Notes under the pieces: generated by a model
The model's input: the letters and a program-made list of their open reading frames with translations, nothing else
Told to the model about the DNA's origin: nothing
The model's database searches: none
Program-made: the position numbers and the translations under genes
In this document: positions 17,619 through 62,214 of the stretch, piece by piece
Layout of the letters: every line of letters starts with the position of its first letter
How positions within the stretch are numbered: position 1 is the first letter of the stretch
DNA from: Gekko japonicus
Taxonomy: Eukaryota
Assembly (NCBI RefSeq): GCF_001447785.1
Contig: NW_015176480.1
Coordinates: 316,724-378,937, forward strand
DNA length: 62,214 bases
Direction of reading: 5' to 3'

Positions 17619-18668
17619 CACAATTCCATTCATTGCTTGACTGATGGATTTTTAAAAGGGGTCATTTAATATATACCATGTTCAATGCATTAGGCCTTTC
17701 CAGGAGTACTTTTGAATCCATTTCCCACAAATAGCAGGTTAGGATGTATGAAATTCAAAAAAGCTTCCCCCCCCCTTTGAATCAATTTGTCTCTTGTGTT
17801 TTCTCCTGCTTGGATGCCCTAATTCTCAGCATTAATGTCAGTAAAAGTATACCGGTAAAACAAAGGTTGTGAACTTATTAATGCAGATTAGCAGGTAACA
17901 AAGAATGGAATCCCTTCTGCAAATAACAGGGAACATCAAGGTGACTTATATAAAATAATCAAGGAAGATGAAAATTTCAAATGTCATACAGATGTCACTA
18001 TGTGGGTCCTCTTCCAAAGATTAGAATGCTTTTAAGCAAATGTGGGCCATGAGGATAATGTGAATGGGCCACTTTCTGTATTTTACTTCTGAGTCACAGA
18101 AACAAAGGCAATGTAGTATAGCAGGTAGAGTGCCAGATTAGGATCTCAGAGTCCCAGGTTCAAACTTTGCTGAGTAACACCAGACCAGTCACATAGTCTC
18201 AGTCTTAAGGTTGCTGTGAGAATAAAATGTAGAAAGGAACAATGTTTATAAGCCACTTCAAGTCCCCACTGGGGAGAGAAGTGGGATATAAATTAAATAA
18301 ATAATTCCATTATAACAAATTAAAATAGTGTTAACATAAGAACATAAGAGAAACCAATGCTGTATCAGGCCAATGGCCCATCTAGTCCAACACTCTGTCA
18401 CACAGTGGCCAAAAATACCAGGTGCCATCCAAAAATACCAGGTGTTCTTATACACATAGAGAAATCCCAAGATTCTGACATTCATATTCAATTTTTCATT
18501 TTTATCCCCCCCCCCCCCGAGCTGGATGAAAAATGGTTCAAGACTGAAAAATTGTTCAAGGCCAGCTGAAGATCAGCTCAAATTCTCTGAAGCTCAGAGG
18601 TACAATCATTTCCCAAGAGGAAAAAAGTAAAAATAACAAAAGGTCATTTTGGTGTAGTGGTTAAGTGC

Positions 18669-19384
18669 TGTCATGCCTGCCCCTGATGAAGCACCTGACA
18701 GCCAGGAGCACGTGGAGTTGGCACCACAAGCCCCTGAGGAACATCCAGAAGCAGAGACTTACAGTCAGGAACTGGCTCCTGCAGCAGAAGACTCTCTAAG
18801 TCTTGAGGAGGATAGAGCCTCCCAAGAGACACCTGTGCAGGATCAGGCTCTGCTTAATCCAAGTAATTCGCCACCCGACTCCCCGCCAGCTGTGACCAGG
18901 CTCAGGAGTCAACGAAGACAAGAGCTGAACGAAAGACTCTGGGCTGCACGCATGCGTGCAAGACGTTTGTTCAGCCCTGAGTTTTAGCAGAAGCTTGACC
19001 TTGCTCCCTGCCAGATAACAAGGTAATTAGCCAGCACACTATATCACCAAGCCTGCTGCTGGAAGGAATTTGTGCTGGCAACTTCGCTTGACAGGACCAA
19101 ACGCTCCATTTTTCCTGCTCCAGACTCCGTGAAACCCTTGTCAGTTTGATCCTCGGCTTTTGACCTTTGGCTCCTTGACACTCAGCATTGTTGACCCTGC
19201 TTTTGTCTCTGCGCTTATCTGGCTTCATTGTGATTGATGGACCTTGACTTCTGGTATGTCTGACGCTGGCTTTGGAAACTGATTTGGACTTGTTTAAACT
19301 GTGCTGCTTGATTTGCTCAGCTAAACCTTGGACTGAATTTGGACTTTGCTTGTTTGCCTCACGCTCCCTGGCCCAGCCGTGACA
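18669..19384 (+). mobile_element. Solo LTR (Gypsy/ERV-type), 716 bp
   Basis: TG..CA ends with short inverted repeat TGTCATG..CGTGACA. Perfect 5-bp TSD AGTGC (18664-18668 and 19385-19389). Interrupts a SINE. Confidence 0.88.
18673..18987 (+). other. Intact 104-aa ORF in LTR U3 (acidic body, PDSP, Arg-rich tail)
   Basis: Starts at the ATG within the LTR terminal TGTCATG. Same layout as the ORF at 58058-58411. Expression is unknown. Confidence 0.5.
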
Positions 19385-20642
19385 AGTGCGTGAACTCTAA
19401 TCTTGGGGAACCAGGTTTGATTCCCCACTCCTCCACTTGCACCTGCTGGATGACCTTGGGCAAGCCATAGTCCTGACACAGCTGTTCTTGAAAAAGAGCA
19501 GTCTCTGTCAGAGCTCTCTCAGCCCCAACTACCTCACAGGGTGTTTGTTGTGGGGAGGGGAAGGGAGTTTGTAAGCCGCTCTGAGACTCCCTTGGGTAGT
19601 GAAGGGCGGGGTATAAATCCAATCTCCTCCTCTTCCTCCTCCTCTTCTAATTTAGAATATCTGAAAATTTCAACATCCATCATGCATAAAGAGCAACTTT
19701 GAACATAACCCAGTGGGAACGGAACCTTTCATTTCCTTGGGGCTTAGACAGGAACTTCTCCTGGTGGGCTAAGTCCTTGCTACCAGCCTGCTTTATTTTA
19801 ATTCCTTTCCACTAAATCATGACACACTCCCAAATCAAACTGTTTTAAAATAACAGCAGTACTAAGTGTTAGGAAAGTTTATTTGTAACTGACACTGTAC
19901 GGTGAAGCGATTTGCATACGTTTGTACAACACTGGTTATACCTCATCATTTGAAGGTTTATCACTTTAACTTACCAGCTACATGTGTGGATTGCCGCAGC
20001 TGAAAAGCCAAGTGGCTGAAGTGACATGAGTTAATATGCTCGGTCTGTGTTTGGTCTGCAACGGCTGTTTTGCACAAACAAGCCATCACTTGCATTGTTG
20101 CCATTAAGTAAGGAATATGTATGCATGAACTCAATCTTTGAGGGAAAGTGTACAGGTGAATTTAAGACAGAAGAAGTTCACCCTTTAAAGAGGGAGATAG
20201 ATAGGGTCAAAAATGATGCTACGCTTTCACAGCAGTGCCTCTTAACGTTCGAAAACACATCACAGGTTGGCATTCAAAGCCTTGAAGGATAAGGTTAATC
20301 ACAGTCTTTTAATGTTTGTCTGTGCATAGCACCAGTCACCTTAAAAATGTACAGATGATTCTCTCCCTTCCTCCTTTCCGCTCCCTGCTACCACTGACAA
20401 TTCTCCACAGATATGGTATCTTTTATTCTGACATTTTATTTATCTTAAACTTAAGCTTATCTTTCTTTAGTAGCAAAGGCCACTGTTTTCTCCAGAGTCT
20501 CAAAGCTTAATCCCTTTTGTGATCTTGGAAATATTAAGGAGACCAGTGAGACTTGGAACAAAAAATAAACAAATTTAACTTGACTAATTGTTCTGTACCA
20601 TAGTCTTTTCTATATATACATACATATACATATATATATATA

Positions 20643-24362: not shown

Positions 24363-25939
24363 CTAGCCTGATACCCGTGCTTTGCTAAGGTATTTAACTT
24401 CGGTTAATCCAGTTATAATACTGATGATGTAAAATTTGAAATGTGTTGTAGGAATTCTAATGAAGAAGATTGTCGTGTAAAAAATGAAGTGAGACATACA
24501 TTCTTTTTTCCTCTCTACTGAAGGACCTCTCTGTAGACTGCTGGGGCGGGTTCCCTCGTGGCTTTAAGCACCCTGCAACCACTGCTGCACCTGACAGAAA
24601 ACCGCCTGTTAGGTGTAGGAGGTGGGGGGGGGGTGTTGGAAGCCATCAGAGAGGCTGGGCCAGCAGCATCACTAAGGCGTCCCTGATGGATTAAAGTACC
24701 CTGGTCCTGCTCCTACACCTGACAGACACCCACCTGTCTGGTGTTGTGTAGGATTATGTTTAAAGGCATCAGAAGGGTTGGCCAGCAGGAGGGCTAAGGC
24801 AATCTTGCTGAGCAAACCTCCCTGGTGGCTGTAAGCATCTACCTGTCCAGTGTAGGAGGAGGAGGGGGAGGAGTATTAGAAGCCACTGTGGGGACAGGGC
24901 CGGCAGGATCACTATGGCATTACTACTGGGGTGGGCTTCCTCGTGGCTTTAAGCACCCTGCAACCGCTGCTGCACCTGACAGACGCCTGTTAGGTGTAGG
25001 AGATGGGGGGGAGTGTGTTGGAAGCCATCAGAGAGGCTGGGCCAGCATTACTGCTAAGGTGATCCTGCTGGGGTGGCGTCCCAGTTGGATTAAAGTACCC
25101 TACTCCTACACCTGACAGACACCTGCCTGTTTGGTGTTCGGGGGGGATCATGTTTAAAGGCATCAGGTAGGCTGGACCAGCAGCAGGACTAAGGCAATCC
25201 TGCTGAGCAAACCTCCCTGGCAGCTGTAAGCATCCCACCTCCTCTCTTACACAGTGTAGGAGGGGGAGGAGTATTAGAAGCTACTATGGAGGCAGGGCTG
25301 GTAGGATCACTAGGGCATGACTGCTGGGGTGGTAACTCCCTCGTGGCTTTAAGCACCCTGCGACTGCTGCTGCATCTGAGAGACAACTGCCTGTCCAGTG
25401 TAGGAGGGGGAGGGGAGGAGTATTAGAAGCTACTATGGAGGCAGGGCTGGTAGGGTCACTAGGGCATTACTACTGGGGTGGTAACTCCCTCATGGCTTTA
25501 AGCACCCTGCGACTGCTGCTGCACCTGACAGACAACTGCCTGTCAGGTGTAGGAGGGCGGAGCATGTTTGAAGCCATAGGAAGGCTGGGCCAGCAGCTTT
25601 GCTTCACCTCACAGGCAGTTGGCCACTCCTGATTTACTCAACTGTCATTAGCTCTCTGTAGTCCCCTGTAACTGGTTTTTTTTTAATCTCAGAACACTGA
25701 ACTCTGCAGCTGACCAATCAGAGAGTGGGGGGTGCAAGGAGGCAGCATAGGAATCAAAGGGGGGAGCACATTTTATCTATTTTGACCCACTTAGGGGTCA
25801 AATTTCTAAAAATCCCTTCTTAGTGAGCACCTATGCCACGGTGGGAGCGCTCTCCCCAAATTTGGTATCTCTAGGTCCAGCAATTTGGCCTGGGTGTTGA
25901 TTTTACGGTGAGGGGACTTTCTTTTATATATATAGAGGA
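24363..25939 (-). mobile_element. Helitron-like non-autonomous element with internal minisatellite array
   Basis: The minus strand runs A|TCCTCTATATATATAAAAG ... agcaaagcacgggtatcaggCTAG|T, giving 5'-TC, 3'-CTAG, an AT target and no TSD. The interior ~24530-25600 has at least four diverged copies of gtggctttaagcaccctgc..gctgctgcacctgacaga..gtgtaggagggggg..gaagc. Confidence 0.7.
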
Positions 25940-50907: not shown

Positions 50908-51256
50908 CCCATGGGGACCAAGCTAATCAGTTCTGTAAGTGGTTGCTGTATTCCTTATTTATTGCATGATGTAAAGGAACAGGCTAGCAAGCCTTTCCTT
51001 GCCCCTTTTGATTGGATCCCTGGGAGGCCAGGAAAAAACCAAACATGGTTGCCCCAAGTGTGCTGGGGGAAGGGCTGAGGGAAAAGGGCACATTGCCAGT
51101 GAAGACTTGGGGCAACCATGTTTGGTTTTTTCCTGGCCTCCCAGGGATCCAATCAAAAGGGGCAAGGAAAGGCTTGCTAGCCTGTTCCTTTACATCATGC
51201 AATAAATAAGGAATACAGCAACCACTTACAGAACTGATTAGCTTGGTCCCCATGGG
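50908..51256. repeat. Perfect 152-bp inverted repeat with 45-bp spacer
   Basis: 50908-51059 is the exact reverse complement of 51105-51256, read base by base and mirrored by identical peptides on both strands in the ORF track. Confidence 0.95.
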
Positions 51257-58053: not shown

Positions 58054-58656
58054 TGTCATGGGTCCTGGCTCAGTCCAGTCTGACTATTCATCACATAAGG
58101 GAGAGGCACAGAACAACCCAGCCTCTTCTGGAGTCAGCCCAGAAGAGGAACCTTTGCCAGCACTTGAGAGAGAAGAGGCTCCAGCATCTGCACAGGAGGT
58201 GCAGCAAGGCAAAGAGCCTGAGGTACAGTTGGAGGAAGAGCCTGGTCCAGAGCCTGGCCCAGCATCCCCAGTTGGAGACACCTTGAGGCCAGATTCCCCA
58301 CTTAGCTCACTTGAATGTCCCAGACACAGGGCATTCCAACATCTGGATGTGCAGGTGAGAAGGAGGAGTGCCAGACTTCAGCTGTTGCAAAGGCAACATG
58401 AGGGGCTGTGAGTCTTTCCAGGTTGCCTCCCAGGGAAGGGAGGGTCCAGTTATAAGCAGCCATGTTCATCTGCCTTGGTGCGGAAGCAACCGTGCAATCT
58501 TGGACCTTGTTCTGGCTGCCAGCCTCTGCTCATCGCTCCTGAGAACTCTGATTGATCTCCCGGCTTTCTGACCCCTGGCACTGTTTCTCGGCTTGGTTGG
58601 GACTTTGCACCTAGCTTGGTATATTGTATTCATGGCAACTGGCCAAAGCCAGCACA
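58054..58656 (+). mobile_element. Probable solo LTR (~600 bp)
   Basis: Starts TGTCATG like 18669 and forms a GC-richer block in AT-rich DNA. TATAAG at 58451 downstream of the ORF. Ends ..cagcaCA. The TSD is only partial (TATGC/TATAT), so the right boundary is approximate. Confidence 0.62.
58058..58411 (+). other. Intact 117-aa ORF in LTR U3 (acidic body, PDSP, RRRSARL)
   Basis: Starts at the ATG of the terminal TGTCATG. Same layout as 18673-18987. Confidence 0.5.
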
Positions 58657-58859
58657 TATATTAAGTTTTGGTTACTCTAATAGAATGAAGTCTGGAACAC
58701 ATTAAAAAGATAAGAAGAAAGGAAAAGATGAAGATCAGGGCATTGTATAGGTTATGAAGGGAATATCATGCAGTGGCAATTCAAGTGCAACAATCTGAGG
58801 AAAGAACTCAGAGCAGCATTAAAAAATCTGAGGAAAGAACCTTCACAACCAAGCTTAAT

Positions 58860-59720
58860 TTCAGTAGATAAAATTCTTAGATATGAAGATCTTTTAGATG
58901 ATAATGGATTTCTAAAAATAAAGGAAGATTTAACAAAGTAAGGTGTTAATTTAGATTGGTGAACAAGGGTTCAAATTGAATCTAGATATATTAAAGATAG
59001 AAAATCTGGTTTTTATTTAGAACAATGTGCATTTGAAAAATTGTTATGTACATGTAATGATAACTTGATTAAGAAAATGTATGTATTTTAATGCAAGTGA
59101 AAATGGAGGATGAAGTGGTTAAAGAGTGTGTGATTAAATGGATTCAAAATCTAGGTTATAATATTGATCTTGCACAGTGGAGTAAACTGTGGAAAGTGAA
59201 TGTGAAAATGACCAAATTGGTTGCATTTAAAGAGAATCTGTATAAGGTGTTCTATAGATGGTATTTAACACCAGATAGATTAGCTAAAATGTACAAAAAT
59301 ATGTCTAATAGTTGCTGGAAGTGTAGAAAACATGTAGGTATGTTTTACCATATGTGGTGGACATGCGAAATTGTATGTAAATTCTGGGTTATGGTGCATA
59401 CATTTATACAGACAGTTCTGTAGACTTCAATACCTTGTCAATCAGAAAAGTTTTTATTGAATTGTATACCAGATGATTTTGACAAAAATAAAAGATATTT
59501 TATAATTCATGTAGTAACAGCAGCTATAATTTTATTTGCAACTTTTTGGAAACTTCCAACAATACCCTCTGAATAAGACCTAATAATGAAGACCACGGAA
59601 AGTGCAGAAATGTACAAACTTACTTTGATCTTAAAGGGCAAATGGAAGAAGATTTTGTTGGACTATGGACTCCTTTTTATGATTGGATAAGAAAGAAATA
59701 CAAAGATATGAACTTTTTGA
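58860..59720 (+). mobile_element. L1-clade LINE ORF2 C-terminal region
   Basis: KENLYKVFYRWYLTPDRLAKMYKNMSNSCWKCRKHVGMFYHMWWTC..FW (L1 C-terminal Cys-rich zinc knuckle). Confidence 0.88.
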
Positions 59721-59899
59721 TAATATAATATGAAGAAGCCTTTATGGACTTTTAAAATTTCACAGTCTATCTTTTGTACTGTGAAATGATATGTGGAGAA
59801 GAGTTATATGCAGAAGACTTTCCCTTTCTCCCCTTACCCCTGTATATCCTAAAAATCTAGTAAAGTGTATTTTTAAAAAATCTTTAAAAAGAACCCAGA

Positions 59900-61492
59900 G
59901 AAGTACTCAAGAAGCACGGCAAGAATTATTGGCTGGATTATCAGAAATAAATAAAAAATTACAAGCACAAGAAATTGTAAGGCAAAGCAAAAAGATAACA
60001 ATATGCAATTAGAAAGGCAAGATTGTTGGATTGAGAAAGTTGACAAAAAATTGAAATCTTGGAAACTTGATGTAGATCTAATAATCTGTGTTTCAGGGGC
60101 ATCTCAGAAGATTCTGAGAGGTCAATTTTGGAAGAGAGCTCCCATGGTCTACTTCAGGACTATTTAAAGATTCAAGGAGACTTCCCCCAATATAGACCAG
60201 ATATTCAGAGTAAATTCAAGATTTGGATCTAAGAACAAGTTACACCGAGCCATACTGGTCTGTTTCACTCACAAGAAAACATGAGATGCAATATTAAAGA
60301 AAAAAGAGAGAATCTCTACATAAAGTAGTTGAAAAAGAAGTGCAGATTTTTCAGGATCTATCAACAAGTGTGTTAAGGAAAAGAAAATATTCTGACTTTC
60401 TGAGACAGATCCTACAAAAGAAAGAAACAAAATATCAGTCAAAGATATTTACAGACCAAAATCCTATAAAAGCAATCTGGCAATGGAATAGAAAAATAAC
60501 AGGAAGATGGAGATTGAATGATGCTCTTTTTCTACTGCAAGAAGACATAGTAAGGAAGTGCAAAAAGGACCTGGGAGAGTTTTTCAAAAGAAATAACATG
60601 GGCCCTGACCTGGATAGCTCAGGAAAGCCTGATCTCGTCAGATCTCGGAAGCTAAGCAGGGCCAACCCTGGCAAGCAATTGGAAGGGAGACCTCCAAGAA
60701 ATACCAAGGTTTGGGACGCAGAGGCAGTCTATCAAGCCACCTCTCTGAAAAATGTCCAATCCCCCAGGAGGGGTTGCCAGATGTCACCATGACTTCCAGA
60801 CATGCAAGCACATACACACACACAAATACCCACAAATAAATAAATAACACAAAAGGAATGTCCTCAGCTACAATTTGGGAAGCAAGTAAGACCCTTATTA
60901 GAGGAATCTTACTAGCTGTTTCCACCAAAAAAGAAATTAGAAAAATCAGAACAAAGAAAGATGATAGTAGAAAAAACCTAGAGGCTGGAACAGGAGCACA
61001 AAAATAATCTTAACAAAGAGACACTAGCAAAGATTAGACAACTAAAACACCAATTAGACATGCCAGAAGTAGATTAAAATTCCCAGAACAAATTAAATTT
61101 CCCAGAACAAAATCATTTTGAATATACGAACAAACCAGGCTGATATTTGGCATTCTGTCTCAGGAAGGAGAAAGAAAAAAAGTCATAGCAGCTGTAAAGA
61201 AAGGAGATCAAATCACTTATGTAAAAAGAGAAATGCAGAAGCACTTTAGCAATGTTTTTTCCAGGATTATACAAAAAGAAGACTGTTCCAGAAGAAGGAT
61301 TAAGAGAATATCTAAAAGATATTCTGATCATAAAGTTTATATCAGAACACAGAACATTTCTGAATAAAACAATAGCGATTCAAGAAATCTCTCTGGCAAT
61401 AAAGAATATGAAAAAGGATAAGGCACCAGGCCCAGATGAGTCGACAGCAATGTATTACAAACACTTTGAAGAAGTTTTAATGATACTGTTAC
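59900..61492 (+). mobile_element. Decayed L1-clade LINE (ORF1 remnant and ORF2 EN-RT linker)
   Basis: ORF1-like IDQIFRVNSRF and QIFQDLSTSVLRKRK. ORF2-like WRLNDALF, IWEASKTLIRG, FEYTNKPG, and EISLAIKNMKKDKAPGPD..YYKHF. Interrupted by a 5S SINE and truncated by an LTR. Confidence 0.8.
60602..60810 (+). mobile_element. 5S rRNA-derived SINE
   Basis: gcctgatctcgtcagatctcggaagctaagcagggccaaccctggcaagcaattggaagggagacc matches the 5S rRNA internal region. Confidence 0.75.
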
Positions 61493-62214
61493 TGAAGCAC
61501 GGGAGATAAGAGTTTTGCCCAGAGATTAAGACCACACCAGATTCTTTAACAAGAGGAGAGCTTTATTAAGGCACCTGAGTCTAGCTATCACCAAAGTGAT
61601 ATCCAAAATGCTAGCCCCTCAACTCTGCAGTCTCTCACATTTTATACTATAAGCTTTTAATCACGTCACAAGCCTTAAACAATGAAAAGTTGTTCTTCAT
61701 ATAGCAACACTATCAGAAGGAAACATCTTGAGTATGTATGTATTGTCTTCTTGAGGTTACATTACCTATGTCAGCTTAAATCACATACACAAATAGTAGA
61801 TAACAACATATGTCTTGCAAAGGAAGCTATAAAATATTTATGTTCACATCCGTGAAGACAGACACCTAGCAGGAGAAAGATTACATTGTTAGCTAAAATA
61901 GATCAGATTTTAAGAGGAAATAGCTTCCAGAGGAAGCTCCAAATCACGTCTCTAGTTTCAGGAAAACAGGAAACAGAAGTGCAGCCAGAGTCTACAGAGT
62001 CTGCCTAAGCAATTTTGAAAATCTTGTATTAGACATGAGACAGAGGTCACTTAGTATTAAGGTATTATTTTTTAATATTTTGCTTCACTCCCCCCTTTCG
62101 GCCACCTTGATAAGTCATGGAGAGGATGGCCGATCAAAATGGCTATATACTGAGGAGTTCCGAGTCTGACAGGTCATGCAAGGGGCACAGGGAGCTTCTG
62201 TGCTGAATAAAGAG
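61493..62214 (-). mobile_element. 3' LTR (61493-62087), polypurine tract and start of the internal region of an ERV/LTR element running out of the window
   Basis: The LTR has terminal inverted repeat TGAAGCA..TGCTTCA. Minus-strand PPT GAAAGGGGGGAG (62088-62099) immediately precedes it. Minus-strand TATAAA at ~61640 and AATAAA at ~61562 are in the correct U3-R-U5 order. Confidence 0.82.

Follow-up and report, generated by a model that had tools for sequence, protein, structure and literature searches.

A solo LTR with an open frame

The window, that is, the whole stretch of 62,214 nucleotides of Gekko japonicus DNA analysed here, contains a clean solo LTR, as the first-pass annotation had stated: its 5' end reads TGTCA, its 3' end TGACA, and AGTGC stands on both flanks. 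A SINE-like repeat (repeat families D6, D12 and D18) runs rightward from the right target-site duplication. The open frame described in that annotation, starting at a terminal ATG and first acidic, then arginine-rich, is also present (18673-18987, 104 aa, with matching translation): amino acids 1-65 include 17 Asp/Glu and one Lys/Arg, and amino acids 66-104 nine Lys/Arg and four Asp/Glu. A second, dissimilar LTR had been said to share this protein layout, and indeed the LTR at 58054-58656 carries a 117-aa ORF built in the same way (the two families are called 1 and 2 below). All features are on the forward (+) strand:

18664..18668, +, left target-site duplication AGTGC
18669..19384, +, solo LTR from a family of chromodomain Ty3/Gypsy elements (Tf1/sushi type)
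18673..18987, +, 104-codon frame; an integrase C-terminal tail in full-length relatives, here without pol
18673..18867, +, acidic linker of variable length, aa 1-65 (dN/dS 0.46)
18868..18984, +, basic end module, conserved (aa 66-104); a Ser/Pro cap, then a predicted helix at aa 73-99, closing with Ser-Pro-acid-aromatic
18898..18909, +, RLRS of the first-pass annotation (RLR conserved, S not)
19040..19046, +, TATA-like box by sequence, 3' of the ORF stop; putative promoter element
19072..19081, +, 10-mer complementary to the primer-binding site (PBS) of full-length copies; probable 5' end of R and U3/R border
19385..19389, +, right target-site duplication AGTGC
58054..58656, +, second solo LTR, of a different family with the same layout
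58058..58411, +, 117-codon frame of family 2
58361..58378, +, RRSARL, identical to residues 1-6 of the HMGN nucleosome-binding core

The PBS complementarity at 19072-19081 places the whole ORF within U3, upstream of the likely promoter (the transcription start being deduced from the sequence only). Since the ORF lies in the U3 region and ahead of the TATA-like box of its own LTR, this solo copy is most likely inert. A single frame of this kind is weak evidence in itself, because 350 of 20,000 base shuffles (1.75%) also yielded a stop-free frame of the same length; it is the evidence from the family that indicates a non-chance origin. A first look in the same genome gave 1290 candidate relatives of the LTR, of which 40 were scored. 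Among the 30 best LTR matches, the 5-bp target-site duplication was perfect in 17, had one mismatch in five, was worse in two and incomplete in six. At one locus (L025, 88% identical to the window LTR) the LTR proved to be the 5' LTR of an element, with gag and pol downstream.

Two further repeats were noticed in the window: at 50908-51256 an inverted repeat with perfect arms of 152 nt around a 45-nt spacer, which is either a MITE-like element or an assembly artefact, and at 24552-25590 a degenerate tandem array whose units measure some 120-150 nt.

The parent element

Parents were located by a pattern combining the polypurine tract (PPT) with the LTR. Two were found, both decayed chromodomain Ty3/Gypsy elements, and a young subfamily was reached via their 3' end. 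Six young copies were fetched: four have paired LTRs (97.6-99.3%), three a 340-codon gag, and one is mostly N; in two of the six, an unbroken pol of 1304 codons ends exactly at the stop of the LTR ORF. The Pfam domains of this pol follow the order PR-RT-RH-IN-SH3-Chromo (Chromo E 5e-12, aa 1129-1176), its best PDB matches are Ty3 Gag-Pol and HP1 chromodomains, and the three aromatic cage positions are present in the chromodomain. Judged by its sequence, the parent is thus a chromodomain Ty3/Gypsy element, probably of the Tf1/sushi type. The LTRs of the three parents tested, and that of the window, contain a 10-mer, 32 nt past the TATA-like box, that is complementary to the PBS. This complementarity suggests that the parent may be self-priming, with its PBS directed against its own R start.

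Among named relatives, the chromodomain region is closest to elements of frog, gecko, python and fungal origin. In a Python bivittatus gene model, too, a similar chromodomain is followed by an acidic stretch, hinting at a wider spread among squamates. Most of 28 relatives from databases have a pol that stops no more than about 50 residues past the chromodomain, and in 16 of these 28 distant relatives a net basic stretch directly follows the chromodomain, whereas this position is acidic in the present clade, suggesting that a basic function may have moved from the post-chromodomain stretch into the LTR. At one locus (L067:1700-9400) two unrelated chromovirus elements adjoin on opposite strands. 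The one on the minus strand, together with the elements at L242-L249, belongs to a second chromovirus clade whose pol ends before the LTR and lacks the acidic-basic tail; the tail is therefore not needed by all chromoviruses, even in the same genome, and this clade lends itself to comparison with the tail-bearing one.

Pol runs into the 3' LTR

In the young loci, the chromodomain frame is continuous with the frame of the LTR ATG in 21 of 22 cases, and in 29 of 30 in an overlapping young set that includes largely the same loci. These loci are not independent, because the copies are nearly identical, and their sameness may be due to assembly homogenisation. Because pol of the young subfamily runs in frame through the PPT to the ORF stop, the ORF is the C-terminal tail of an integrase, composed of a variable acidic linker and a basic module of 39 residues. 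Of the two routes of translation originally envisaged, that of a Pol/integrase read-through from the 3' LTR is the one borne out by these loci.

The situation is less clear-cut in older elements. In-frame continuity was found in 22 of 41 tail-bearing older parents with a called PPT, 11 and 8 being in the two other frames (one third would be in frame by chance); these 41 were drawn from 60 fetched, the rest having no call, belonging to the tail-less clade or being rearranged. Among the eight parents nearest to the window subfamily, seven had a PPT call, and only one of the seven was in frame; these parents differ in how long the G runs within and ahead of the PPT are. The original idea that pol might pass the PPT in frame with the ATG at 18673 thus holds for the young subfamily, but for only one of the seven called parents closest to the window copy.

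RNA reads cover the young subfamily at L137:2530-7649 in 30, 18 and 30 of 30 bins in three runs, and are deepest at the R/U5 end. On one young copy they span the PPT junction, with no common indel listed there. The libraries were unstranded, and the reads may derive from intronic copies.

The frame has been under selection

The end module is ungapped in 68 of 103 loci, and in 63 of these 68 the stop falls in one and the same alignment column. To measure selection, pairs of real copies and one maximum likelihood tree were used, with 63 distinct sequences over codons 69-104 (three frameshifted rows and duplicates were removed). Close pairs gave a dN/dS of 0.82 or 1.23, and distant, between-subfamily pairs 0.18-0.46; the pair counts share ancestry. 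The other frames gave 1.59, 1.26, 0.81, 0.52 and 1.90, the value of 0.52 belonging to one reverse-strand frame. On the tree, omega was 0.43, with a log-likelihood of -2184.7 against -2215.6 at omega 1 (2dlnL 61.8). When the same 378 pairs of 28 parents were compared throughout, dN/dS was 0.10 for the chromodomain, 0.20 for the module and 0.46 for the linker. Shared alleles are split 41/29/68 between the three codon positions, and singletons 8/10/8. Finally, 10 of 12 shared gaps within the ORF are multiples of three, compared with 5 of 27 past the stop (Fisher p 0.0002, 41 full LTRs).

Taken together, the selection and triplet-gap data imply that replicating lineages kept the protein, while inserted copies, including that of the window, decay neutrally. 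As had been supposed, the frame is coding and not a product of chance: dN/dS between subfamilies is 0.18-0.46 and not about 1, and the stop is fixed in 63 of 68.

A predicted helix and the motif question

The conserved unit consists of a Ser/Pro cap, a predicted helix with fixed Val, Leu and Ala and several Arg, and a Ser-Pro-Glu-aromatic end. The most constant positions, out of 68 sequences, are V74 (67), L77 (67), A92 (64) and R93 (58), to which the Ser-Pro sites can be added (S70 64, S101 66, P102 64). The helix is predicted for residues 8-34 of the 39 (27 residues), with a mean pLDDT of 83 and a core above 90.

The first-pass annotation had singled out RLRS as an arginine anchor resembling that of KSHV LANA. 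We do not think that this identification can be maintained. RLR occurs in 49 of 67 distinct modules and RLRS in only 24; position 79, the S of RLRS, is Ser in 32 of 68, Asn in 17, Asp in 10 and Glu in 9, and the residue before RLR is Thr, Asn, Ala or Ser. Moreover, the module is predicted as a continuous helix, whereas LANA binds as a hairpin (PMC9040877). The suggestion that the Trp codon is a decayed CGG, giving RLRAARM, can be abandoned as well: RLRAARM is absent from the relatives, in which amino acid 89 is Arg in 51 of 68 and amino acid 90 is Lys in 29, Arg in 22, Gln in 11 and Trp in 4.

Searches for known counterparts were negative. Pfam returned no family for either window ORF and only scattered weak matches, none credible, for 40 modules; the best PDB sequence match of the module, to the basic helix of MyoD, was not significant (E 0.76), and family 2 reached E 2.8; and the ESM Atlas gave no usable match for the tail. 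In homolog searches the tail turned up only in hypothetical proteins of Gekko kuhli and in two unnamed records. Three further matches, two fish tandem-repeat proteins and one metagenome protein, look spurious and were set aside.

The second LTR family

The target-site duplication of the second LTR is degraded (TATGC/TATAT), and the LTR is flanked by AT-rich DNA (58657-62214) with ORFs at 59091-59423 and 61252-61509, which we take to be LINE-like ORF2 fragments. Family 2 has 945 candidates by DNA and 1822 by protein. Exact RRSARL is present in 28 of 59 modules and RRSxR in 35 of 59, the columns R-R-S-A-R-L being kept in 52/47/53/54/55/51 of 59; because family 2 is one star-like old family, this count mostly reflects shared descent. 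The modules of families 1 and 2 align weakly in the RRSARL register (hhalign probability 59.5%, 24 columns).

Pattern and protein searches and ten flank fetches yielded no full-length parent of family 2, and a homolog search with the family 2 profile gave no match, which is weak evidence. A third type of tail, in frame with the chromodomain and with an Arg-rich end resembling that of family 2, exists at L231 and L251; this supports the idea that the family 2 ORF is likewise a pol tail.

A second grip on chromatin?

Starting from the observed anatomy of the element, the continuity of its frame and the selection on the protein, we think it somewhat probable that the tail, at the 3' end of pol of a lizard chromovirus, provides the integration complex with a second chromatin or DNA grip beside the chromodomain. 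Because the full-length RNA would start at R in the 5' LTR, only the copy of the frame in the 3' LTR would be translated. In young full-length copies pol continues through the PPT into U3, and integrase gains an acidic linker and an Arg-rich predicted helix. The chromodomain would read a histone tail that is methylated; the basic helix, carried by a flexible leash of about 65 residues, could hold nucleosomal or linker DNA or a histone surface, the two grips together giving the integration complex a higher avidity. In solo LTRs the frame would be a decaying passenger upstream of the LTR's own promoter.

The first alternative retains the same tail and specifies its partner as the H2A-H2B acidic patch, held through an arginine anchor; it lies partly inside the second-grip reading, and we consider it possible but rather doubtful. 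Its best candidate motif is not RLRS but the RRSARL of family 2, with an RR-x-AR counterpart in family 1. HMGN proteins bind the patch by RRSAR (PMC12487698), a word contained in the RRSARL found exactly in 28 of 59 family 2 modules, the two modules align weakly in the register of RRSARL (59.5%), and A92 (64/68) and R93 (58/68) are largely kept in family 1. Against this, RRSxR occurs in only 2 of 67 family 1 modules, the position of the HMGN serine varying there between Ala (36), Glu (17), Asn (8) and Asp (5); the RLRS serine is found in 32 of 68 only, and the parent of family 2 was not found in our searches. The long predicted helix is a further difficulty, as LANA and IE1 bind in the form of hairpin or V-shaped peptides (PMC9040877). 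A complex prediction for the module with the H2A and H2B of the same genome scored 0.02, in a setting in which controls were unfolded and the alignment was unused, so that this score speaks neither for nor against the anchor. A more precise version, in which a methyl-lysine chromodomain and an LTR-coded arginine anchor on the acidic patch form a two-handed reader, with the RRSARL word in one family, is in our opinion doubtful. If it were true, a retrotransposon integrase would for the first time be seen to carry an acidic-patch anchor, and the plant CR motif would have its parallel in a vertebrate; and, the module being coded in U3, families could swap their targeting module by LTR exchange.

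A second alternative, which we regard as unlikely, is that the module chiefly directs integrase or the pre-integration complex into the nucleus, possibly with a Ser-Pro phosphorylation switch. It would account for the Arg-rich C-terminus and for the Ser-Pro conserved at both module ends (S70 in 64, S101 in 66 and P102 in 64 of 68), and there is a precedent in the C-terminal bipartite NLS of Ty1 integrase, where the linker is a targeting domain (PMC7459421, PMC3605345). However, the conserved non-basic positions of the helix and the fixed length of 39 residues exceed what a linear NLS needs, and the module is nearly devoid of lysine.

It is more improbable that the tail is optional, being reached by G-run slippage during translation or reverse transcription, or that a protease frees it as a p12-like peptide. 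This idea could draw on the three frame states seen among parents, one of which ends pol cleanly within the PPT, and on the low in-frame score of the nearest parents (1/7). G runs, however, are unstable both after insertion and in short-read assembly, 21 of 22 young loci have kept the frame, and the RNA reads reveal no common indel at the PPT.

That the ORF encodes a separate accessory protein, translated from the LTR's own ATG, is very improbable. Most of the families examined retain this ATG at position 5 of the LTR, but it is part of the terminal TGTCATG end and lies 5' of the TATA-like box and of the probable R start. Furthermore, no splice joint serving the ORF was found in 3016, 49 and 570 RNA reads from three runs, the only joint being that of the LTR to the internal region. 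A chance or functionless frame, which 1.75% of shuffles also produce and with which the neutral evolution of close copies agrees, has a negligible probability in view of dN/dS, the codon-position bias of shared alleles, the triplet gaps and the fixed stop; absence of function is ruled out for the replicating lineages and holds for the solo copy of the window.

The tail matters because C-terminal extensions of integrase determine the landing sites of LTR elements. In the vertebrate clade there are many natural variants of a selected module of 39 residues, small enough for peptide-nucleosome assays, whereas for the plant CR motif no partner is named in the literature covered. There is also a warning for annotation: in genomes of this kind, thousands of solo LTRs hold a frame beginning with ATG, which gene finders annotate as hypothetical proteins.

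Comparison with known systems

The first-pass annotation presented the frame as its best candidate for an undescribed system. This was too strong, as the arrangement is known in principle from plant CRM pol (PMC3059260). In the literature covered (subscription papers, Repbase and supplements, which may note an overlap, lay outside it) we found no such tail in vertebrate chromoviruses and, within the same limits, no acidic-patch motif in a retrotransposon integrase. What we did not find described there is the combination of a chromodomain and an LTR-coded basic tail in a vertebrate element.

Ty1 integrase (PMC7459421) and the C-terminal chromodomain of Ty3 integrase (bioRxiv 2021.07.27.453949) place import or targeting signals in C-terminal extensions; unlike the present tail, these are not LTR-coded and bind Pol III machinery. 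KSHV LANA 1-23, the PFV Gag CBS and MLV p12 (PMC9040877) are short Arg-bearing segments which, like our module, could tether the genome of the element. They are hairpin or extended peptides located on Gag or on separate proteins (the LANA, IE1 and PFV Gag anchors being described in the same source as non-helical), whereas our module belongs to integrase and is predicted to be helical. With respect to LANA, the place of M6 is taken by a polar residue that varies and the serine is not conserved; family 1 lacks a conserved (M)RLRS(G) motif. The HMGN core RRSARLSA and tardigrade Dsup (PMC12487698) share RRSARL with family 2 (28 of 59 copies), where it lies in an otherwise low-complexity acidic chain, but family 2 lacks the following SA, family 1 lacks RRSxR, and the location here is a retrotransposon tail.

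The Tf1/sushi chromoviruses (sushi-ichi, Amn; PMC6317226) resemble the parent in gag, in a PR-RT-RH-IN-SH3-chromodomain pol and in the 5-bp target-site duplication. The self-priming signature is known for this group (same source), and the Sushi LTR end motif (PMC3601003) matches the TGT..ACA ends of the window family. The difference is that the present pol extends a further 105 codons or so into the 3' LTR, where a conserved basic module closes it. In this respect there is a likeness with plant CRM and some Beta chromoviruses, whose pol enters the 3' LTR and ends in a targeting motif (PMC3059260, PMC3605345, PMC6317226). Pol of CRM group A extends into the 3' LTR as in our young subfamily, but this group lost its chromodomain and gained the CR motif, whereas the present element keeps a cage-type chromodomain in addition to the tail. 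CRM has plant hosts and our element a vertebrate host, and the likeness is one of arrangement.
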